NCBI GenBank assembly: GCA_964458305.1
Contig: CAYWIH010000008.1
Coordinates: 1 to 63,128, forward strand
Reading direction: 5' to 3'
DNA length: 63,128 nucleotides
From: an uncultured bacterium
GTDB lineage: Bacteria; Cyanobacteriota; Cyanobacteriia; Cyanobacteriales; JASJDA01
Shown: positions 38,172-48,982 of the stretch, piece by piece
Layout of the letters: the number at the start of each line of letters is the position of its first letter
How positions within the stretch are numbered: the first letter of the stretch is position 1
The notes under the pieces: generated by a model
Seen by the model: only the letters and a program-made list of their open reading frames with translations
Database searches by the model: none
Told to the model about the DNA's origin: nothing
Translations under genes and position numbers: made by a program

Positions 38172-38579
38172 ATGATTATATTACTGGAAATAGCCGATCG
38201 ATCTGACGATCTCGAAAAAATAATCAAAATTAAAAATCCGACATGGTCGATAGTAGAAGAATCTCTGAAAAACTTAAATTACAATAATAAATATACTGCC
38301 ACGATCGAAGCTGACAATGGTTCTTATATGGGGATTGTAATCGGCGAACATAATAAATATTTAGTTGGCAGTTTTTTAGCAGGGAAAGGAAGATTTATTT
38401 TAGTCGATTCTCCAGATGAAGAAAACTTTATTACTCTCGAAATTGGCGGGAAACATAGCAAATTTGCCGCCCACGAATTTGTAGATTTAGAAACTCTTTT
38501 AACAGTTGCAGAAACATTTTTTAAAACAGGAGAATGCGATCGCAGATTTGAATGGAAAGAACGAGGAGCAAATTGTTAG
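38172..38579 (+). CDS. Probable Imm1-family immunity protein
   Basis: IKNPTWSIVEESLKNL start, YMGIVIG and LLTVAETFFKTGECDRRFEW end resemble Imm1 proteins as recalled; AT-rich. Confidence 0.6.
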   Translation: MIILLEIADRSDDLEKIIKIKNPTWSIVEESLKNLNYNNKYTATIEADNGSYMGIVIGEHNKYLVGSFLAGKGRFILVDSPDEENFITLEIGGKHSKFAAHEFVDLETLLTVAETFFKTGECDRRFEWKERGANC

Positions 38580-38897: not shown

Positions 38898-39995
38898 ATG
38901 GAAGAAGACAGGGCTTACTGGTTGGCGTGGTCGCAAATATCTGGAGTCGGGCCGGTTTCACTAAAAAAAATTGACAAACATTTTGGTAATTTAGCAAAAG
39001 CTTGGCAGACACCAGCAGAAAATTTAGCAGCAATTGCAGGATTTGGCAGCAAATTAATTAATAAAATAAAACAAGCTCGATCGCAAATTATACCCGAAAA
39101 ATTACTAAGAGAATATAGTCAAAAAAATCCCTATTTTTGGACGCCAGCCGATCGAGAATATCCGCGATTGTTATTAGAAATTCCCAGCCCTCCCCCAGTT
39201 TTACATTATCGCGGCCAAATTAAAGAAGAAGAAAATCAAGGAATCGTTCCTTTAATCGGCATCGTCGGTACTCGCAAACCCACAGAATACGGTCGTCGCT
39301 GGACGCAAAAAATCACTAAAACCCTTACTCAGCATGGTTTTGGCATAGTTTCCGGCTTGGCTGCGGGGATCGATGCAGTCAGCCACAATGCTTGTCTCGA
39401 AGCCAACGGTAGGACGATCGCGGTATTGGGTACGGGTACGGATCTTGTTTATCCTTACAGCAACCGCAAACTTTACGATCGAATCGGCAATTCTGGTTTA
39501 ATTTTAAGCGAATATCCGGCCGGCACGAAACCCGATCGGGGTCATTTTCCGGCAAGAAATCGGATTATAGCGGGGCTTTGTCGTGCTATTTTGGTTATGG
39601 AAGCACCAATTAAATCGGGGGCTTTAATTACGGCGCGTTTGGCTAACGATTTTGGTCGCGATGTTTACGTTTTACCCGGTTCGTTAGATAATCAACAATG
39701 TTTCGGCTGTTTGGAATTATTGAATCGAGGAGCTAATTTAATTTCAAGCGAAACCCGTTTGTTAGAAATGTTAGGAACTATACCCAAACTCGATCCGCAA
39801 CCAGTTGCTTCATCTGTTAATTTACAACCAGAATTAGCCGCAGTTTTACAAGTAATTACTCCTAGTTCCACTCCTTTGGATTTAATTGTCAAAGAAACGG
39901 GTTTGCATAGTAGCATTGTTGCCAATCGTTTGTTGGAATTAGAATTATTAGGTTTGATCTCTCAATTACCTGGAATGCGCTATCAAAGATGTTAG
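38898..39995 (+). CDS. dprA: DNA-processing protein DprA
   Basis: IVGTRKPTEYG, VSGLAAGID, FPARNRIIAGL, EAPIKSGALITA and a C-terminal winged helix. Confidence 0.95.
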   Translation: MEEDRAYWLAWSQISGVGPVSLKKIDKHFGNLAKAWQTPAENLAAIAGFGSKLINKIKQARSQIIPEKLLREYSQKNPYFWTPADREYPRLLLEIPSPPPVLHYRGQIKEEENQGIVPLIGIVGTRKPTEYGRRWTQKITKTLTQHGFGIVSGLAAGIDAVSHNACLEANGRTIAVLGTGTDLVYPYSNRKLYDRIGNSGLILSEYPAGTKPDRGHFPARNRIIAGLCRAILVMEAPIKSGALITARLANDFGRDVYVLPGSLDNQQCFGCLELLNRGANLISSETRLLEMLGTIPKLDPQPVASSVNLQPELAAVLQVITPSSTPLDLIVKETGLHSSIVANRLLELELLGLISQLPGMRYQRC

Positions 39996-40257
39996 TTATT
40001 GCGATCGAACTGTAATTAAAGATTTAGTTAAATTACGATCTTTTAATATTGAAGATTGGATTAATTATCGGATTTTTATTGGTTGTCGGCTCAGTAATAT
40101 TGTTTAATAGAATTTGATGCCGTATATTTTTTTTGTCCCGATCGAATTAAGCGGCAAAAATCCGTTAAATCTCCTAATAATTGAATCAATATAAACTATC
40201 TCCCGATCGACGGGAAATGCATTAAAAATAGTAAAGCTTAGCAATTAGAAAAGAACG

Positions 40258-40494
40258 ATGAAAGCAAAAATCAAAATAGCCATACTGGAAAAAGCCGCTA
40301 ATAAAATAGAAGCGATCGCCGCTCGGGTTTCGAAAACAAGCGATCGCAATACTATTAATTTAGAGGTAAACGAAGTAATCGCCGACTTAGAAACGGCGAT
40401 CTTAGAAATGAAAAATATTTACAAACAAAAACAATTAAGCAAAAAAGAAGATCGAGAAATAGAAAGATTAAAACCAGCTTCCAGCCAAATCTAA
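40258..40494 (+). CDS. Small hypothetical helical protein
   Basis: ATG ORF with plausible coiled-coil composition, convergent with the patatin gene. Confidence 0.5.
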   Translation: MKAKIKIAILEKAANKIEAIAARVSKTSDRNTINLEVNEVIADLETAILEMKNIYKQKQLSKKEDREIERLKPASSQI

Positions 40495-40504
40495 AAATAA
40501 GATT

Positions 40505-41692
40505 TTAAGGCTCTAAAAAACCATCAAAATCTGCTATTTCTACTTGTTCTTTAGCAACAGCCCGACCGATGGCAGATAAAGCATCAATTTGGTCGATACA
40601 ATCGAGTCCGGCTACTTTTTTGGGATCTATATAATCCAATCCTAATTCCTCAAAACGTTCTTTTGACAATTCGGTTGTATAGCGATGATAAGTGAGCAAA
40701 TTAAGTTCTTCATCGATTCCTTCTAGATCGAAAGAATTGGATTTTGCAGCGCATTTTTTTAGGGATTTAAGTTGTTTCATGCTGTAACTTGTTGGCAAAC
40801 AAGCCTTAATCATTTCGCGATCGACGCTTTGAGATTTGGGCATTTTACTAATAATTTTCATCAGTACGTTTTGCTGTACGTTAGCGTCTTCCATTAAAGT
40901 AGCGACTGCATAATTTGCCCAATTAATTAAGTTATATTCCCTTGCTTTTCCTGGTGGTTCGACTCCTTCTTGACTGAAACCAGTACCTACTGAAATTGTT
41001 AAAATTTTATCCGCTCCTGCTTCCCAGTCTATGCCATATTCTTGCAGAGTTGCTTCGATAAATAAGCGAAAAGAGGGATTATTAAACATACTCATTCCCC
41101 CATCAACAAAGTCGTAACTTTTACCGTCTACTTGAAAAGAACAAGGGGGAAAAAAAGTAGGTGCGGCCGAACTGGCTCTAACTATTTTCCAAAGGGGAAT
41201 CTTACTATTAATTTGGAAATTTTGATTCTGAGGATGGTTGATAAAAAACCAATCTGTTTGGGTGACTACGTTTTTAGTAACGATCATCAAAAATGTTTTA
41301 ATTTTATCCGATCCCAACAGAGTATTTTCGCCATAAACTTCTTTTAATTTCCGCTCCAAAGGGCCGGGATTGTATTTAGACCAAAACTTACCAAATAACC
41401 AATTGCGAGTAAACATTTCCTCGCCAAAATTGCGATAAAGATCGAGAATCGGTTGCACTTTCATCCCCGTAGCCAAAGCTGCAGCAATTAAAGCCCCAGT
41501 ACTGTTACCGCCAATAAAATCGAAATAATCGGCCAGGCAATTCCAACCCTTATTTTGGCTGCAAATTAACCTTTCTATTTCTAACAAAATCTCAGCAGCA
41601 ACTATGCCACGAATTCCACCCCCATCTAAAGAAAGCAAGCGTTTGGGGCGATCGCAAGGTAGATTGTTTTTAAACTCTGTTAAAGCATTCAT
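40505..41692 (-). CDS. Patatin-like phospholipase
   Basis: LSLDGGGIRG oxyanion loop, GNSTG nucleophile elbow, ASSAAPTFF and catalytic DGG. Confidence 0.92.
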   Translation of the reverse strand: MNALTEFKNNLPCDRPKRLLSLDGGGIRGIVAAEILLEIERLICSQNKGWNCLADYFDFIGGNSTGALIAAALATGMKVQPILDLYRNFGEEMFTRNWLFGKFWSKYNPGPLERKLKEVYGENTLLGSDKIKTFLMIVTKNVVTQTDWFFINHPQNQNFQINSKIPLWKIVRASSAAPTFFPPCSFQVDGKSYDFVDGGMSMFNNPSFRLFIEATLQEYGIDWEAGADKILTISVGTGFSQEGVEPPGKAREYNLINWANYAVATLMEDANVQQNVLMKIISKMPKSQSVDREMIKACLPTSYSMKQLKSLKKCAAKSNSFDLEGIDEELNLLTYHRYTTELSKERFEELGLDYIDPKKVAGLDCIDQIDALSAIGRAVAKEQVEIADFDGFLEP

Positions 41693-41695
41693 TGT

Positions 41696-44218
41696 TTAAG
41701 TGTCGATACTAGTAGCAATTTGTACTGGAGAAAGGTAAGGATAAGGAATTTTTCCCTGTTTTTCTAGTTCGCTATTGCGTCGCTCGATCTCCGTTGCAAT
41801 CAGGTTTAATTTAGCTATAAATACGGCGTGAACTCCGTGTAATTTTTCAGCTTCTGGGGCGGGTAAATTGCCGATCGGATGTAAAGAATGGGTCGAAAGT
41901 AAGCGAGAGAAAAAGGTTTGAAAATGTGCGTCTTTATAAGGTTGTAAAGCTTCCTTCAAGACATAATCTAAGCTGACATCTTCCGTACCTTCGGGAATGC
42001 CTTTATAAAGAACGTTGGGACGATTGGGGATGTAACCTAGATATTGATACTGAGAAAAATTGATCGCCGAATGTTGCGCGCTGGCAAGAAAAATAATATT
42101 AGTAAGAGTACCGATTAAAACTTCTTTGCTGGCGATATTTTTAGGAAAACCAGGAACAGATCCTTTTTCGGGATCGGCAGTTTCAGCGGCCCAATTTTGA
42201 ATCACACTATCTTCAGCTACAGCGCGATCGCGATTGTATTCGATCTCGACGACATTAGTAACATATTCTTTAATCGCATTCCAAATTTTAAACCCGTCAT
42301 CGCGAAAATAAAAATCTTCAACACCATCCGAACCTGCTTCGTCAAACCCCCGGGTTTTTAATTGTTCGGGAAAACTCATTTTCTCAAAATCCCAATTTTC
42401 CCAGAGTTTGAGAATCAATTCTAATCCTCCACCAGTTCCAGTAGCGAAGTTAGGATCGGTAAAAGGTGCGACTGGAGAAATTAAAGTTTGACGGGCTAAA
42501 TAATTAATTCCCAGACTTCCTTTAAAATGAGGTGCGAGTATTTGTCCGATCGCGTGAGTTTTGGGAAATGAGTTGTGATGGCTGATGACAAAAGGTTCGA
42601 TAACCAAATGAGTTAAGGCTAAATGATAGACAAACTGATGGTATTGACAGTCAGCACATTGAACGTGCATTTTGGCGAGAATATATTTATTCGCTGGGGA
42701 ATTTTTAGTATAAATTTGGTTAGGATTGAGTCGGATGCCGAGTAAATTGAGTTGAGATTTACCATTTTCGAGCAATTCTCGATATATCAACACGTATGGC
42801 TCGTAAAATACCTTATTTTGTAGTTCTTTAATCCCTTTTAACTCTTGATAATCGAGATAAAATAAGCGTTTGGCGGCAATTAATCGATCGATCGATTCTC
42901 CTTGAGGTGTAGTTAAACCAGCTAAGTCTTCAGGAATGTCTTTTTTATCTTGACAAACTGAGATCCGCATCGGGTTGACACCTTGAATGAATTGACGACA
43001 AAATTCCGCATCTTCTCGCCAAATTTCGGGAATTTTAACCGGAGGTTTCACCCAAGGATCGCTGTAATAAGCCGTCCAAGGATCGCCTTTTGCTGCTAAA
43101 ATCTCTTCTAGTCGAAAGAAAAATCCGGCTTGAGAGTAGACATATTCGATAGTTCTTTGCAATAATGATGCTGCTTGTTCAGGTGGTATTTGTTGTCCGG
43201 GGGGAAGACCTTTAACCATCGGCGGTAATTTTTCTAAAGGCAGATCTGGCTTGTGTTTGAGACGGGGATATTTTTCATATTCGTATTTTTGCTCTACTCC
43301 ACCGGGTACTTGTTCTACTACTGTCATCACTTGTTTTTTGGTATATAGTAGAAGCTTTTCGAGGAAATCGAATTTTCGTTCCATTTCCATCTCTTCAGTC
43401 GGAGGTAGCCTATTTTCCCCAGAATCTAAACTTAACAATAAAGAAACAACTATTTCCCCAGAATTACCCGAATCTAAACTTAAAGTCTTACGAGTTAGTT
43501 TACCTGCGACGATCTCGCGAAGTTCGATCTCCGTACTACCGATGAGATCGTCTCGACCGAAATTAGCATCCCAAATACTAAAATAGAGTTTTTCGTTACT
43601 CTCAATTAGATCGAAAGAGAATTTTTCTTGCCAAATTGGTTGACGGGTGCGATAAATGACTGGAGACTCTTGAGGTTCGCCATTATCTAAAATTACGATC
43701 GCATAAGGATCGAGAAAGAGTTGGCTGGTTTTTAGCAAATCTATCCCTTGAATTAAGGTTACTTCTAATTTACCGATCGTCGGATTGAAATAAGTATCGA
43801 GGGATTTGATTGCTGTTTGATATGTTGCTTGTTGAATTTTAGCAACTTTTTTAGCCCCAGTGCGATCGACATCGTTTTCGCAATACCAACGCACGATCGT
43901 TTCATTTTCGTCCTTAGCGGACATTTGAACCGTTAAAGAACTCTTTTTTAAAGAACTAATTAGGGGTTCGAGGGGTACTGAGGAGTATTTTAAAATATAA
44001 TTTTCGTCGTCTCGTAATTCGAGGGTATGTTCGTATTCTCTCCCTTGAATTTTACACGATCGCACCGCCCCTACTTCATCTTTTCCGGGGGGGTTGAGGG
44101 TCAAAGATTCGTAAATATGCCACCATTTTAGGGTTTCGGGGCCGAAAGGTCGAAAAACTTGCCAAACTTGGTTAATAGGTGCGCGTACAATTCCGGTTAT
44201 ATTTGCGCCAGGAATCAT
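41696..44218 (-). CDS. Lipoxygenase with N-terminal SRPBCC/START and C2 domains
   Basis: SRPBCC: IVRAPINQVWQVFRPF...VGAVR. C2: LEVTLIQGIDL...DPYA...PIWQEKFSF...IWDANFGRDDLIG. LOX: WREDAEFCRQFIQGVNP, HQFVYHLALTH, INYLARQTLI, FRDDG, AQHSAINFSQY and C-terminal TSIDT. Confidence 0.9.
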   Translation of the reverse strand: MIPGANITGIVRAPINQVWQVFRPFGPETLKWWHIYESLTLNPPGKDEVGAVRSCKIQGREYEHTLELRDDENYILKYSSVPLEPLISSLKKSSLTVQMSAKDENETIVRWYCENDVDRTGAKKVAKIQQATYQTAIKSLDTYFNPTIGKLEVTLIQGIDLLKTSQLFLDPYAIVILDNGEPQESPVIYRTRQPIWQEKFSFDLIESNEKLYFSIWDANFGRDDLIGSTEIELREIVAGKLTRKTLSLDSGNSGEIVVSLLLSLDSGENRLPPTEEMEMERKFDFLEKLLLYTKKQVMTVVEQVPGGVEQKYEYEKYPRLKHKPDLPLEKLPPMVKGLPPGQQIPPEQAASLLQRTIEYVYSQAGFFFRLEEILAAKGDPWTAYYSDPWVKPPVKIPEIWREDAEFCRQFIQGVNPMRISVCQDKKDIPEDLAGLTTPQGESIDRLIAAKRLFYLDYQELKGIKELQNKVFYEPYVLIYRELLENGKSQLNLLGIRLNPNQIYTKNSPANKYILAKMHVQCADCQYHQFVYHLALTHLVIEPFVISHHNSFPKTHAIGQILAPHFKGSLGINYLARQTLISPVAPFTDPNFATGTGGGLELILKLWENWDFEKMSFPEQLKTRGFDEAGSDGVEDFYFRDDGFKIWNAIKEYVTNVVEIEYNRDRAVAEDSVIQNWAAETADPEKGSVPGFPKNIASKEVLIGTLTNIIFLASAQHSAINFSQYQYLGYIPNRPNVLYKGIPEGTEDVSLDYVLKEALQPYKDAHFQTFFSRLLSTHSLHPIGNLPAPEAEKLHGVHAVFIAKLNLIATEIERRNSELEKQGKIPYPYLSPVQIATSIDT

Positions 44219-44333
44219 CTTCTACCCTCCAAAGTAATAGAGTTTGTCTGTTCACTACTACTATTACTATTCGGATAGTTTGGTTATTTTTTCACAAGTT
44301 TGGCGAGTTTAGCAATAATTCTTTACAAGATTG

Positions 44334-45443
44334 TTAAATTGTCGATACTCCTCCTGCAACTGGAGAAGTTCCCATTAATTTCAACCAACGATAATTAGAA
44401 GCAAATGCCGAGGCAAAACTGGGATAAACTTGGTAATTAACTCCAAATTCTCGAGCAACTTCAGCAACGATCGGGGAGATATTACGATAGTGAATGTGAC
44501 AGATATTAGGGAAAAGATGGTGAACGGCTTGATAGTTTAAACCGCCGACGTACCAATTTAAAATTGGATTGTGGGGAGCAAAATCTGCGGTAGTTTTGAG
44601 TTGGAAAACGGCCCATTCATCGTCAATACTGTTGGATTTTGGATCTGGTTGGGGAAATTCTAAGCCTTCTAAAACATGGGCTAACATGAAGATTTCACAA
44701 GCTACTAAACCGTAACTCATATAGGCGATCGACAAACCAATAAATATTTGTAGCGGCCCGTATCCTACTAATAAAGGGATGCCGACAAAAAAGCCCAGAC
44801 CTAACAATCTCATTCCCCAAAAAGCAATTAAATCGGAGACTTTCAATTTTGGTATTTTATTACCGAGTAAATCGCCGCCAACAACAACGAATCTCAATTC
44901 GTTTAAATACCAGTAAAAAGGAATAATTAAATAGATAAACCAAATAAATAAATGTTGGAAACGCTGATGGGGTTTATAAATATTATTCGGCGACATTCTC
45001 ACCAAGCCATCGCCGTGAATTTCTGCATCGTAATCTTTTAAATTAGTATAATTATGGTGCAAAACATTGTGGCGGAATCTCCAGTGAAAATTAGATACGC
45101 CAATAAAATCGTAACTCAAGCCGATCGCTTTATTAACGGTAGAATTGTATGAATAAGCCCCGTGATTGGCATCGTGTCCTACACTCATACCACAACCAGC
45201 TATTCCTAACCCTAAAACAACGCAACCTAATGCTTTTACCCACATTGGTGAGGGTACGAAAATAACAAAAGCCCAAGAACTCAAAATCCAGCTAAATATA
45301 ATTACTGTTTTGAAATACATTGCTGGATTATCTTTTTGTTTAATATTATTCTTAGTAAAGTATTCCTCTACTCGACGATTTAATTCTTTTCTAAAGCCGA
45401 TATTTTTAGAAAAAGTTACTCTTGGTTTTTGGTTCGTTTCCAT
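44334..45443 (-). CDS. desD: Membrane fatty acid desaturase, delta-6 (DesD) type
   Basis: His boxes HDANH, HNVLHH and QAVHHLFP; GFRKELNRRVEEYF...DNPAMYFKT and EIHGDGLVRMSP closely resemble cyanobacterial DesD. Confidence 0.85.
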   Translation of the reverse strand: METNQKPRVTFSKNIGFRKELNRRVEEYFTKNNIKQKDNPAMYFKTVIIFSWILSSWAFVIFVPSPMWVKALGCVVLGLGIAGCGMSVGHDANHGAYSYNSTVNKAIGLSYDFIGVSNFHWRFRHNVLHHNYTNLKDYDAEIHGDGLVRMSPNNIYKPHQRFQHLFIWFIYLIIPFYWYLNELRFVVVGGDLLGNKIPKLKVSDLIAFWGMRLLGLGFFVGIPLLVGYGPLQIFIGLSIAYMSYGLVACEIFMLAHVLEGLEFPQPDPKSNSIDDEWAVFQLKTTADFAPHNPILNWYVGGLNYQAVHHLFPNICHIHYRNISPIVAEVAREFGVNYQVYPSFASAFASNYRWLKLMGTSPVAGGVSTI

Positions 45444-45773
45444 CAGCAATTCTTTGGTTTAATAATAGAGAAAAAACAGCAGCACAAACTAGAATACTAA
45501 CATTAACCTAGCGATCGATTAGTGTTAATAATTCAGCCAACAAATGTATTGCCAACGACAGATAAAAATTGGCTATTTTCAGCTTTTAGCTTTAATTTTG
45601 CAAACAAATATTAGTATTACACGAAGAAGTAATTTAGTAAAGCAATACCGCTTCGCTACAAGGGAGAATTTTTTTTTAGTAAAGATTTTTCTAAGTTTAA
45701 AATTAATTAATTTAATTTGAAATTGCTAGAACGAATTTAATATTGTTCGATCGCTCCTTCCCATAGCCCGATC

Positions 45774-47750
45774 TTATGTTTCAATTTCGAATTCTTCAGG
45801 ATCGATTCCCCAATTAACCCATTTTATAGCTTCTCTTGCGGAATTTAAATTGGGTGGTACTCGCAAAGCATGAATTTTGTCGGTACTGGGGCAGGTCATT
45901 TGTAGCAGATAAACGGCTTCAGAGTCTATATTTGAATCAATTCTTAATAATTCATATTCTCGCCAGGTATTGATTACTACTGCTTGCAATTCTTGGCAAA
46001 TTTTGTCGTAGCCGATACCTTGAATTAATGCTCGTTTTAATTCGGCATTAGTTTCGGATAATAGCCATTCGCTTTGCCATTTTGTTGGGTGAATTGTACC
46101 ATATTTTTCGGGTAACAAGACCCCCCGATAAGCATATATTGAAAAACCATCCCTATATTCAATAGCTGGAGATCCTTCTGAGTGTAATTGATTTTGAGAA
46201 TTAAAGGATAATTTACGAGGTCGATCGCCAATTAAACATACTTTTGGTAAACCGAATATATCTTCGCAATTTTCTCTTAATTCTAAATAAGCTTTACCCA
46301 AAGGATCGATTTTATATTTAAGTTCGGAAATACAAAAATCTGTAAAACTGAGATAGGGATCGTAGTGATTTCTATTCATCCACAAATAATCTTGAAAAAG
46401 ATTATACTTTCGATCGATTAAATCTCTTGTTTTTGAATATATTGCATGAGATTGAGCGCGATTTTTTCCCTCGACTTGTTCGTCTATTTGATTTGGTGCG
46501 TTACAAAATTTATATAGTTTTTCAATGAGGGACTCATCTAATCGATCGTGCCAATGAGAAGGAATATATTTTCCTTTGGATGTTACCCATTTATTTTGCG
46601 ACCAATCGCTATTTTTAGCTAATATTTGGTATTTTTCAGAAGGGCTAGAATGGAAAATAATTTCCGGTTCTGCTTCTCCTAATATTTTATAAATAGTTTT
46701 TACAGTTTCGGCTGCTTTTTTTCTATCTATAGGTTCGGTAGAAAAAATAATTTCACGCCATTTTTCTCGATAAATAGTAGTTAAAGTTTGTTTCTCTGGA
46801 GGGACTTTATTAATAAACGCTTTTAACTCAATATTCGTATCCGATGGAATATCATAAAAAGTATATTTTTGTAATTGTTCGATTTGTTCGTCTGTTAATT
46901 CTCGATAGATTTTTTTAGACCCAATTCCTTTAATTAATGTTTGCTTTAATTTCCGATTTGGTTCGTTTAATAACCAATTCGTTTGCCAATCTTTATAAGG
47001 CAATTTTCTGTATTTTTCTGGCAACCAAACACCTCGATCGGCATAAGCAGAAAAACCATCATTATATTCTATCGCTGGTGTTGCTTCAGCGTGTAAATTA
47101 CCTTTATTATCGAATAAAAGTTTCTTAGGGCGATCGCAAATTAAACAGACTTCTCGAAAAGCAAAAACTGTTCCGCAATGTTTATGTATTTCTACGGTAA
47201 ATTGTTTGAAAAAATTATCTTCTATATTTAATTCGGAAAAACAAAAATCGTACCAAGCGCAATATGAAAGTAAACTATCATGGTTCAAAGCGTCATCAAA
47301 TATTTTAATATAAGGGTCGTAATTTAAGGGTTCGATTTCTTTTAAAAATTTATCTTTTATCTCTTGATATAATACTTCCCATATTTCGCGAACTAAGTTG
47401 TCTAATTTACTATCGTAAATATGTAATTGAATATCGAGTCCAATTATTTCTTCTGATTTTATAGAATAGATTCTTCTTTTTACGGAATTAATCTCCTTGA
47501 CAATTTTAGATTTAAATTCACTGCTATTTTTTTTATAGTTCTCAAGATTTTGATTTAAATCTTTTGCCAAACCATAAGGACTATCAAAAAAGAGTATTTT
47601 GGGTTTGGGAAACTCAACTAATTCGTAGAAATTTTCAATAACTTCTCTTGCTTTTCCTCGGTTACGAGGTGCGGTATAAAAGATAATATTGCGCCACTTT
47701 TCTCGATAAAAAGTAATAGATTCTTTTTGTGCTTCAGTTAATTGAATCAT
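45774..47750 (-). CDS. Hypothetical protein with a tandemly duplicated DUF6745-like domain
   Basis: YREKWR...DRP..L...LH.E..PAIEY.DGFS.YA.RGV.LPEKY occurs twice; C-terminal MTCPST...HALRVPP. Confidence 0.75.
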
Positions 47751-48982
47751 CTAAATATAAATAATACAACTTGAAGACAACCAACCAAAAAGCCCAAAAT
47801 TCCACCCAAATTTACTATAGCTTGTAACTCGCTTTTAACAATTCCTTGAATTGAAGCTTCTAAATCTCTTGGAGAAGTAGAATTAACGCGATCGATAATT
47901 ACTTGGTCGATCGATAAAATGGGAATAACTTTAGCCACAATTATTTCTAAATCCTTTTCTAAATAACGTTCGAAAACTAAAGCTAGTTCTTGGCTAATTA
48001 CTTCTAAAGAATCTAATAAAGTTTCTGAAGATTGTAAGCGATTAACTAACAATACCGCTATTTTATTCCAGTCGATCGACTTACCTAATTCTTGAATTAA
48101 ATTCGGCCCTTGTTCTTGAAGGTAACTCCTAACAGTATCCCTTGTTGTTTTGCGTAATTGACGAACTGTAGAAACAGGTAAATTCTGTAAAGAAAGACTT
48201 TGCAACCAGATTCTTAAGCGATTGCGGACTTCTAATGATAGAATTAATTCTTGAAGTCTAGAATTGGCTACCTCCTTCTCATCCAAACAAAAAGATCGCA
48301 AACGAACCAAACTATTACGCAAACCCAAGACATTAGCTACTACCCAAACAGTACCGCTCGATTTTTCGCGAAAAATTTCGTCTAAAATTTGAATGTTGCG
48401 ATCGGTGAGAAAATCGATAACGATCTGTCGGATCGAGTCTGCTGGTAAAACTACTTGTAAAAACCAATCAGATAATTGTCTTGCTTGAGAGTCATTGAGT
48501 TGAAAATCTAATAAAACGCGATCGAAAATGCGATCGATTTGTTCTTCTAAAAAATCTTCGCGACGAGCCAGTACTTTAATCAAACGAGGTAAAGACTTAT
48601 CAAAAAGATCTTTGAGAACGCTGGCTATTATTTTAGCGGTTTTTTCCTCTTTATCTTGTTTGAGTTGTTCGATCGCCAAATTTAACAGCCACAGGATAGC
48701 AGCTTCAACTCTTTCGGTTGCTAGGAGTCTTCTGGCTAAATTTTGTAATTCAGCTGGGGTAAGCAACGATCCCATAATTGTATCGGAAACTCGCTTGGCC
48801 AGTCTTTCTTGGTTGCGAGGAATTAAACCAGGAGTGAAGGGTAAACGTCTTTTACCCACCATTATCGGTTGATAGGGACGAAAAAGCATTTTAATGGCTA
48901 TATCGTTAGTAAAATAGCCAATAATAGTCCCAGCTACGGGAGGAATAATGAAGGTTAGTAGGTTAGACCAATTCAAAGCCAC
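47747..48982 (-). CDS. DUF445 family membrane protein
   Basis: [24 protein letters not shown] and [13 protein letters not shown]. Confidence 0.9.

Follow-up and report, generated by a model that had tools for sequence, protein, structure and literature searches.

Here, we describe a lipoxygenase (LOX) gene and its two immediate neighbours in a stretch of 63,128 nucleotides (nt) from an uncultured bacterium of the order Cyanobacteriales (contig CAYWIH010000008.1 of assembly GCA_964458305.1; the whole stretch is called the window below). The source genome comprises 5.0 Mb and is 99% complete. The LOX, named P0001, is a protein of 840 amino acids (aa) in which an SRPBCC domain and a C2 domain precede the lipoxygenase domain, and its gene (41696..44218, minus strand) lies in a row on one strand with genes for a membrane fatty-acid desaturase and a patatin-like phospholipase. 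The order of the row is desaturase, 115 nt, LOX, 3 nt (from the LOX stop codon to the ATG of the patatin gene), patatin. We slightly favour the reading that these genes form a membrane-docked oxylipin module, in which the desaturase would make a polyunsaturated fatty acid (PUFA), the patatin would free it and the C2-docked LOX would oxygenate it. What the sequence shows in support of this proposal are the domains, catalytic residues that are intact in each of the three enzymes, the order of the genes and a patatin that recurs beside related LOXs. To our knowledge, few bacteria have lipoxygenases, and little has been learned of what these enzymes act on and do in the cell. The locus joins an enzyme of supply (the desaturase), an enzyme of release (the patatin) and an oxygenase with a putative anchor and lipid pocket of its own; since the genes of supply, release and oxygenation stand in one row, they provide a complete and testable pathway hypothesis.

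Domains of the lipoxygenase

The reading frame of the LOX gene starts with ATG at 44218, is open over all 840 codons and ends with TAA (41696-41698), and a GGAGG motif sits 8 nt 5' of the start codon. P0001 is the sole LOX match in the genome. Its division into SRPBCC, true C2 and complete LOX domains, which a first-pass annotation had read from the letters of the sequence, was confirmed by Pfam, by two AlphaFold models and by Foldseek, and the C2 motifs quoted there are present in the translation (DPY at residues 170-172, PIWQEKFSF at 194-202 and WDANFGRDDLIG at 216-227). No NCBIfam model matches P0001 in a scan of the whole protein. No signal peptide was seen in the homologue alignment or by Pfam (no dedicated predictor was run), since the protein can be aligned with its homologues from residue 1 and Pfam finds nothing else there.

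The lipoxygenase catalytic domain occupies aa 395-840 (41699..43036, minus strand) and was identified by Pfam, by a structure-sequence search and by Foldseek. The match to the Pfam family Lipoxygenase (PF00305) spans aa 399-816 with E 5.3e-61 and 207.4 bits, against a cut-off of 23.6. The best solved sequence match of the domain is 5-LOX (3o8y, E 3.5e-52); with the whole model, Foldseek also found 5-LOX (E 2.2e-35), as well as CspLOX2 (5med; TMt 0.81, rmsd 5.2). H527 and H532 on a first helix and H716 and N720 on a second one are aligned with those residues of stable 5-LOX which we take to be its iron ligands, and across 49 sequences the four side-chain ligand columns show little or no variation. 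At position A575, the site of Ala/Gly stereocontrol, P0001 has Ala and the 11R-LOX in the same alignment output has Gly; Ala at this position presumably predicts S stereochemistry (the Coffa-Brash rule). Judged from its sequence, P0001 is probably a cytosolic, iron-dependent and S-specific lipoxygenase.

The fifth ligand site is of an uncommon kind. The C-terminal residue of a LOX is normally Ile, and its carboxylate binds the iron. P0001 and 5-LOX end at the same alignment position, which places the carboxylate of T840 at this site. As only the carboxylate of the last residue binds iron, the Thr ending would still fit the ligand pattern, as a variation of it. The protein ends in SIDT (last codon 41699-41701), and 112 of the 136 family rows end in Ile. 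A terminal Thr was found in 11 family sequences, all within part of the cyanobacterial subclade to which P0001 belongs (the other members are those of loci L002, L005, L007 and L010 and the proteins P0005, P0007, P0008, P0011, P0016 and P0017). The phrase "C-terminal threonine", for LOXs, was absent among the literature matches listed.

The second domain is a true C2 domain, an eight-strand beta sandwich at aa 149-264 (43427..43774, minus strand), found by Pfam and by structure searches. It matches PF00168 over aa 149-246 (profile positions 1-102 of 104) with E 5.5e-16 and 59.1 bits, the cut-off being 22. A six-frame search of the genome gave a C2 match at 43478-43774 (E 9.2e-17, 63.3 bits), which is the only C2 domain in the 5.0 Mb, and none of 14 control genomes contained one. 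A sequence search against solved structures reached the C2 domains of E-Syt2 (6e-7), of a NEDD4-like protein and of At3g17980. The Foldseek matches include E-Syt2 (E 8e-11), plant E-Syt1 C2A (TMt 0.85) and the delta form of cytosolic phospholipase A2 (cPLA2-delta, 5izr), at 27-30% identity with an rmsd of 2.2 A, as well as PKC-epsilon, cPLA2-alpha, Munc13, perforin and dysferlin. No PLAT domain was among the 36 Foldseek matches listed for the aa 1-270 model (ranks 1-50). We also considered a PLAT domain in the guise of C2, and this was ruled out, as PF01477 gave no match at E up to 1 and the Foldseek matches are C2 domains.

The first-pass annotation had noted that only part of the Ca2+-binding Asp set is present, and this held. 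D170, D217, D223 and D224 are there, the DxD motif reads D-A-N with N219 as its Asn, and loop 1 has T164 and no Asp. By the synaptotagmin-type pattern, which we take to define a set of five acidic ligands in loops 1 and 3, three of the five canonical positions are filled (D170, D217 and D223). The amphioxus homologues possess the full acidic set, with D-R-D and extra Asp residues in loop 1, where P0001 has T164. Across 75 C2 segments, Asp is kept at D217 in 72, at D223 in 74 and at D170 in 53, and the position of N219 is Asp in seven. Asn is used by certain C2 domains that do bind Ca2+, so that binding by P0001 is possible. As P0001 has an incomplete set of the canonical ligands and amphioxus a complete one, Ca2+ gating is uncertain for the cyanobacterial clade.

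The N-terminal domain is an SRPBCC domain of the helix-grip, Polyketide_cyc2-like type (aa 6-146; 43781..44203, minus strand), recognised by Pfam, by our own hidden Markov model (HMM), by AlphaFold2 and by Foldseek. Scanned by themselves, the first 150 residues matched Polyketide_cyc2 (PF10604) along profile positions 10-140 of 142 (E 7.7e-6), with a score of 26.7 bits where 27.4 is the cut-off; this family was not listed when the whole protein was scanned with Pfam. The same domain passed this cut-off in six of the eight homologues scanned (35.8 to 88 bits), and our SRPBCC HMM gave E 4e-64 on P0001. In a separate AlphaFold2 model of aa 1-270 (predicted local distance difference test, pLDDT, 90.5), the helix-grip fold is formed by beta strands within residues 2-116 and a C-terminal helix at 119-144, and Foldseek matched it to XoxI (3cnw, TMt 0.82), 3f08 (TMt 0.83), 7tmu (TMt 0.79), PYL2/RCAR and the ARO/CYC di-domain protein BexL. 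The sequence evidence is weaker, and it is the match of the modelled fold to solved SRPBCC proteins that settles the assignment. In profile searches the two N-terminal domains thus differ: C2 stands well above its cut-off, while SRPBCC in P0001 stands just under it and is supported by the fold. Polar residues invariant across 11 SRPBCC sequences are R53, Y62, D71, Y78, T107, W111, Q129 and Y133. A lipid, be it substrate, product or effector, is the most likely ligand of the domain, which would also tune entry to the LOX channel; catalysis of its own is probably not its function.

The AlphaFold2 model of the whole protein, built on a 49-row alignment, has a mean pLDDT of 91.7 and a predicted TM-score (pTM) of 0.72. 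It consists of a beta sheet with a long helix (aa 2-144), eight strands (149-264), a linker helix (275-302) and the helical catalytic domain. The linker as a whole (aa 265-394; 43037..43426, minus strand) comprises this long helix and a conserved segment (Y312, Y314, P332, P346), and pLDDT dips to 65-73 around aa 270-310.

The gene row and the recurrence of the patatin

The desaturase gene (44334..45449, minus strand) encodes P0003, a membrane protein of 371 aa of the front-end (Δ6, DesD-like) type, which matches PF00487 at E 1.4e-28. Its relatives at 50-64% identity are labelled by their sources as linoleoyl-CoA or delta-6 acyl-lipid desaturases, and it is 54% identical over 99% to a desaturase of Limnospira platensis. 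The histidine boxes read HDANH, HNVLHH and QAVHH; the Q in the third box (QxxHH) is, we assume, a mark of front-end desaturases. The genome has seven desaturase matches, P0003 among them, and an Atlas search with P0003 returned only "fatty acid desaturase family protein". The patatin-like phospholipase P0002 (395 aa; 40505..41692, minus strand) matches PF01734 at E 6e-26 and is the only patatin in the genome. Its motifs G-G-G-x-R-G, G-x-S64-x-G and D197-G-G are intact and invariant in 10 patatin sequences. When aa 1-394 of the LOX were modelled in complex with the patatin, the prediction (score 0.00, mark 0.32) counted neither for nor against binding.

The same order of desaturase, LOX, patatin and a convergent dprA was found in a Prochloraceae metagenome-assembled genome (MAG; locus L002), whose LOX is 75% identical to P0001. 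We then compared 59 related loci (26 from genomes and 33 from metagenomes) by a six-frame scan with our own HMMs; 16 of them bear a C2 domain and 43 are without a detected one. A locus was counted if it extended at least 1.5 kb downstream, which left 14 C2-bearing and 19 C2-less loci. A patatin was present in 10 of the 14 C2-bearing loci (L002, L003, L006, L008, L009, L010, L011, L012, L014 and L032) in comparison to one of the 19 C2-less loci (L027), with a weak match in L024. In eight of the 10, the patatin follows the LOX match by 2-288 nt on the same strand; that of L003 lies 2244 nt from the LOX and that of L009 is on the other strand. Pfam confirmed the patatin in three of the locus neighbours. 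The patatin partner thus recurs beside C2-bearing LOXs in two phyla. The identity of these neighbours to P0002 is low, 18-21% for the myxobacterial patatins and 26-28% for those of L010 and L027, and since the neighbour patatins are only 18-28% identical to P0002, the LOX-patatin pairing is either old or has arisen more than once. On the locus tree there are three changes of C2 state and five of patatin state. The raw contrast is striking, and it is not phylogenetically independent; we regard the association of C2 with patatin as a lead.

Four RNA libraries of mat and stromatolite metatranscriptomes contain contigs that cover the desaturase gene at 95-99% identity. One of these contigs (44166-44978) runs from the desaturase across the gap and 53 nt into the LOX reading frame, and another (42554-42754) lies inside the LOX domain. 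We take these as a weak sign of expression, since a contig of this kind is no proof of a transcript. Most of the LOX gene and the entire patatin gene are without RNA-library contigs, which tells nothing about their expression. DNA runs from three studies, with the label stromatolite or microbial mat metagenome, contain at least half of the sampled words, and one of these runs may be the source; as to habitat, we go no further than the labels.

Around the row, the ten flanking genes annotated are housekeeping-like or encode domains of unknown function (DUFs): an aminotransferase, DprA, a UbiE methyltransferase, a UvrD helicase, NDH-2, DUF445 and DUF6745 proteins are among them. Upstream of the desaturase, the gene at 45774-47750 (minus strand), whose product of 658 aa matches DUF6745 at its C-terminus, overlaps that of a DUF445 membrane protein (47747-48982, minus strand). 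A 135-aa open reading frame between the aminotransferase gene and dprA (38172-38579, plus strand) gave a weak match to the Imm1 immunity-protein family (E 7e-4, below the cut-off).

Enzymes of other kinds were seen near two of the related LOX genes. A glyoxalase-fold protein and a short-chain dehydrogenase are encoded near the LOX and the patatin of L003 (8856-10294), and an aldo-keto reductase next to the LOX of L004 (8771-9748). By their families, these are plausible candidates for the processing of oxylipin aldehydes or ketones.

Distribution and descent of the family

Database searches yielded 49 relatives of P0001, and a second search, started from a Shewanella member, yielded 102. In a census of 110 database proteins with our own HMMs for the three domains, 67 had SRPBCC, C2 and LOX, 13 had SRPBCC and LOX, three had C2 and LOX, and 27 had LOX only, many of the last being fragments or outgroup fish ALOX. 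The three-domain carriers among cyanobacteria are Tolypothrix, Coleofasciculus, Trichocoleus, Kamptonema/Oscillatoria sp. PCC 10802 (truncated at the N-terminus) and the Prochloraceae MAG; those among other bacteria are the Myxococcota (Pendulispora and Sandaracinaceae MAGs) and the gammaproteobacterium Shewanella sp. HL-SH2; and those among chordates are Branchiostoma, Petromyzon and Lampetra. The proteins of Tolypothrix, Coleofasciculus and Trichocoleus are 55-61% identical to P0001 over its full length (100%), those of Branchiostoma 35-39% over 89-100%, and the Shewanella sp. HL-SH2 protein 38%. The idea that the architecture is unique to the source genome, or an artefact of gene fusion, is ruled out by the many full-length three-domain relatives.

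These data bear on the suggestion of the first-pass annotation that membrane targeting arose here by convergence or horizontal transfer. Docking by the C2 domain would still be the natural reading, but the combination of domains is not of local origin: it did not originate in the lineage of P0001, being the majority state among its database relatives (67 of 110). The architecture itself had also been characterised in part before, in bioRxiv 10.1101/2022.05.18.492404 and PMC11507377, as far as the available text of both goes. The SRPBCC-C2-LOX architecture is already known, and P0001 is a further example of a little-studied family.

A quick LG+G4 tree of the catalytic domain was built from 110 of 136 rows, with fish ALOX as the outgroup; 25 duplicates or fragments and P0101, whose LOX match is split, were left out. 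P0001 pairs with the Prochloraceae MAG protein (SH-aLRT 100) inside a cyanobacterial clade of 14 rows (100), 12 of which have C2 and two (Symploca and Caldora) do not; the proteins of Coleofasciculus, Trichocoleus and Tolypothrix also fall in this clade. The C2-less forms are nested in the clade and so look like losses, though gain and loss cannot formally be told apart on this tree. Under the fish ALOX root, all 94 bacterial rows make up one clade (100), amphioxus is its sister (84) and lamprey falls outside. The chordate C2-LOX rows (P0029-P0038, P0078, P0082 and P0083) thus stand outside the bacterial clade and are not nested in it; by itself, this does not fit a recent transfer from bacterium to chordate. 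As the tree is a quick one with long branches, transfer in either direction is possible.

Among 40 related genomes searched, the full-length gene is present in one of the two of the same genus and in none of the 38 of the same order; six of the same-order genomes have a match to the catalytic part only, at 31-34% identity. Given this patchy presence, the LOX gene is accessory.

Several related loci carry further features. An Oscillatoria MAG has tandem LOX genes (L023, 47-2125 and 2836-5025), the second of which is about 30% identical to the catalytic domain of P0001. The LOX match of two metagenome contigs is broken up between two or three reading frames (L056, 5739-7069, and L060, 1207-2555), which could be due to frameshifts, assembly errors or decaying copies. 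Stand-alone SRPBCC genes adjoin the LOX gene in seven loci, upstream of it in L008 (4894-5967), L011 (1140-2075) and L012 (5028-5963) and downstream in L016 (8216-9142), L027 (8429-9367), L017 (4393-4716) and L022 (2989-3339). In cyanobacterial forms of 1144-1152 aa, the extra SRPBCC domains are fused to the LOX, with one to three SRPBCC copies in tandem; by sequence, the extra module occurs either split off as a neighbour gene or fused. Directly upstream of the LOX in Oscillatoria sp. PCC 10802 (L010, 4902-5879, plus strand), a 325-aa protein has sigma-70 regions 2 and 4 and a weak C-terminal match to Polyketide_cyc2 (E 7e-4), and it might represent the fusion of a sigma factor with an SRPBCC-like sensor domain beside the LOX-patatin pair.

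Proposed mechanism and known systems

From the gene row and the domains we infer an order of reactions, a substrate, membrane docking, any Ca2+ dependence and a trigger. The DesD-like Δ6 desaturase would add a third or fourth double bond to membrane acyl chains, giving γ-linolenate or stearidonate. The patatin-like acyl hydrolase, probably coupled translationally to the LOX, would release the polyunsaturated acid from a glycerolipid, and the LOX, docked by C2 on the membrane surface, would oxygenate the freed acid to a hydroperoxide, from which short-chain aldehydes or hydroxy acids are possible onward products. SRPBCC would be a lipid-binding modulator of channel access in the LOX. The biological trigger is plausibly cell damage or grazing in a microbial mat.

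A number of points weigh against this module. The desaturase is linked to the LOX only in the window and in L002 among the 26 genome loci, and four of the 14 C2-bearing loci (L004, L033, L034 and L035) have no patatin. The supported branches of the locus tree hold only two independent contrasts (sign test, p at least 0.5). Scans of 39900-46000 gave 22 promoter-like sites in comparison to 17.0 ± 4.5 in shuffled sequences and six terminator-like sites in comparison to 5.3 ± 2.3, i.e., no better than the shuffles in either case. Ca2+ gating is uncertain, with three of five acidic ligand positions filled and an Asn in the C2 domain; membrane binding by this domain would follow by analogy from its family. 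The C-terminal Thr in place of Ile may have an effect on iron binding. Finally, the assayed SRPBCC-LOX enzymes PhLOX and SvLOX, discussed below, are likened to P0001 by published description and may or may not belong to the three-domain subfamily.

The same parts and the same adjacency would also suit a reversed order, in which the C2-docked LOX oxygenates esterified membrane chains and the patatin then excises the oxidised chains, whether for the release of signals or volatiles or for bilayer repair. Esterified substrates are attacked by some LOXs, mammalian 15-LOX among them, and a C2 domain holding the enzyme on the bilayer would suit attack on esterified lipid at least as well. However, the sequence does not distinguish a free from an esterified substrate, an SRPBCC pocket would be better suited to a monomeric lipid than to a bilayer, and the relatives assayed were given free fatty acids, according to the available text of the respective papers. 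We regard the reversed order as rather unlikely.

Another reading would make the LOX and the patatin a suicide pair, in which a CapV-like patatin and a membrane-peroxidising LOX are set free jointly as abortive-infection effectors upon phage infection or damage and make up no biosynthetic pathway. P0002 shares the patatin fold and the Ser-Asp dyad motifs with CapV of the cyclic-oligonucleotide-based anti-phage signalling system (CBASS), matches the PADLOC phospholipase effector models PDLC00758 (185 bits) and PDLC00757 (154 bits), and scores 144 bits with the NCBIfam model CBASS_lipase; the accessory-like distribution described above would fit such a role as well. This score is, however, below the cut-off of 200, so that P0002 does not qualify as a CapV equivalog. 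Neither the LOX nor the desaturase has a match among the PADLOC models, and no cyclase (CD-NTase), other sensor or defence gene was seen among the ten flanking proteins scanned. P0002 is also unlike CapV in having a LOX as its partner, and the dedicated desaturase in the row suggests a supply of substrate. A role in defence appears improbable.

It is equally improbable that the SRPBCC domain itself converts the hydroperoxide as a stand-in for an allene oxide synthase (AOS) or a cyclase, as the first-pass annotation had supposed for the pocket in place of the usual fused AOS: the polyketide cyclase/dehydrase family match, the Foldseek hit to the ARO/CYC protein BexL, the invariance of R53, Y62, D71, Y78, Q129 and Y133 and the loss of hydroperoxide lyase (HPL) activity from PhLOX after deletion of its whole N-terminal part (PMC11507377, available text) speak for it, but the best structural matches are ligand-binding proteins (XoxI-like proteins and PYL receptors), extra copies as one to three tandem domains or neighbour genes are more typical of binding modules, and in PhLOX the AOS and HPL activities were mapped to residues of the LOX pocket, where point mutations changed them, while deletion of the first barrel raised the volatiles.

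Of the published systems, the LOXs of amphioxus, lamprey and Coleofasciculus share with P0001 the domain order SRPBCC, C2, LOX. According to the available text of bioRxiv 10.1101/2022.05.18.492404, all the LOXs of amphioxus possess a C2-like domain, mostly with 1-5 SRPBCC domains, homologues exist in lamprey and hagfish, and these proteins are likened to cyanobacterial or proteobacterial LOXs. The preprint, of 2025, names a protein of Coleofasciculus sp. FACHB-125 (WP_190414990.1) with three SRPBCC domains and credits earlier amphioxus reports with the C2-like domain. P0001 differs from these in its single SRPBCC domain, against the larger number in many of the cyanobacterial and amphioxus forms (1144-1196 aa), in lacking two acidic loop residues of C2 that are kept in amphioxus, and in its terminal Thr. 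The desaturase and patatin context is not mentioned in the text of that preprint available to us.

PhLOX and PhLOX2 of Pyropia haitanensis and SvLOX of Shewanella violacea are described as SRPBCC-LOX enzymes (PMC4319731 and PMC11507377, both in their available text). As in P0001, an N-terminal SRPBCC domain stands in place of PLAT before a LOX domain with His/His/His/Asn/C-terminal-carboxylate ligands. PhLOX and SvLOX use C18 and C20 PUFA and have LOX, hydroperoxidase and HPL activities (PMC11507377), and the substrates assayed with PhLOX2 were γ-linolenic, arachidonic, eicosapentaenoic and docosahexaenoic acids (PMC4319731). These enzymes show the range for such LOXs: broad substrates, double peroxidation and HPL activity. 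The model of PhLOX has two perpendicular beta barrels in aa 1-284 and helices leading to the LOX domain (PMC11507377), a layout of two barrels and helix that resembles the predicted SRPBCC, C2 and helix of P0001. Deletion of the first barrel raised the volatile products; deletion of both abolished HPL activity and lowered or delayed the hydroperoxide signal at 235 nm; and the mutations that changed AOS and HPL activities were at N575, Q777 and F826 in the LOX pocket (PMC11507377). Unlike what we report for P0001, the authors name no C2 domain in the available text. PhLOX and SvLOX were absent from both relative searches (49 and 102 hits), being either more distant or missed by the word index. 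When the residue numbers given for SvLOX in the available text of PMC11507377 were compared with the Shewanella sp. HL-SH2 protein, L770 fitted and position 739 did not.

Full-text searches on these LOXs and their architecture turned up neither a paper on a bacterial LOX-patatin gene pair nor a biochemical study in which a bacterial LOX is said to have a C2 domain. The bacterial-LOX preprint 10.1101/2022.06.21.497025 contains no occurrence of SRPBCC, C2 domain, patatin or domain architecture. The mini-LOX CspLOX2 (PDB 5med) and the catalase-related AOS-LOX fusions are also cyanobacterial and have the same catalytic fold, but they are without both N-terminal domains or bear a haem AOS domain, and P0001 is not close to them. 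LOXs of this kind are what the six same-order genomes mentioned above carry.

The animal pair of 5-LOX and cPLA2 follows the same logic as the row described here, with a phospholipase A and a LOX that has a beta-sandwich membrane module before its catalytic domain. Animal 5-LOX and cPLA2 translocate together to the membrane, driven by Ca2+. PLAT belongs to the LOX and C2 to the phospholipase in the animal pair, whereas here it is the LOX that carries C2, and the C2 domains of cPLA2-alpha and cPLA2-delta are among the closest solved folds to that of the P0001 model. The phospholipase here is a patatin in which Pfam found only the patatin domain, and, unlike in animals, there is no FLAP-like partner. 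One could speculate, though we think it unlikely, that a C2-LOX with a coupled patatin is the prokaryotic counterpart of the animal cPLA2/5-LOX axis, a membrane switch triggered by damage or Ca2+ that shares ancestry with the chordate C2-LOXs. If so, a breach of the envelope, for instance through grazing or lysis in a calcifying mat or stromatolite, would lead to a burst of Δ6-PUFA oxylipins or volatile aldehydes, and the amphioxus and lamprey C2-LOXs would be related to the bacterial module, with either direction of transfer. Should the pairing be no more than an ancestral legacy within a single lineage, the locus would be an ordinary addition to a published family. The LOX-patatin locus would serve as a bacterial model for the coupling of phospholipase and lipoxygenase at membranes, and a well-expressing bacterial enzyme could stand in biochemically for the amphioxus and lamprey C2-LOXs. 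In comparison to what is in print, the architecture itself is known and the gene context adds something new; the operon, the patatin that recurs beside the LOX and the Thr at the end of the protein merit further attention.

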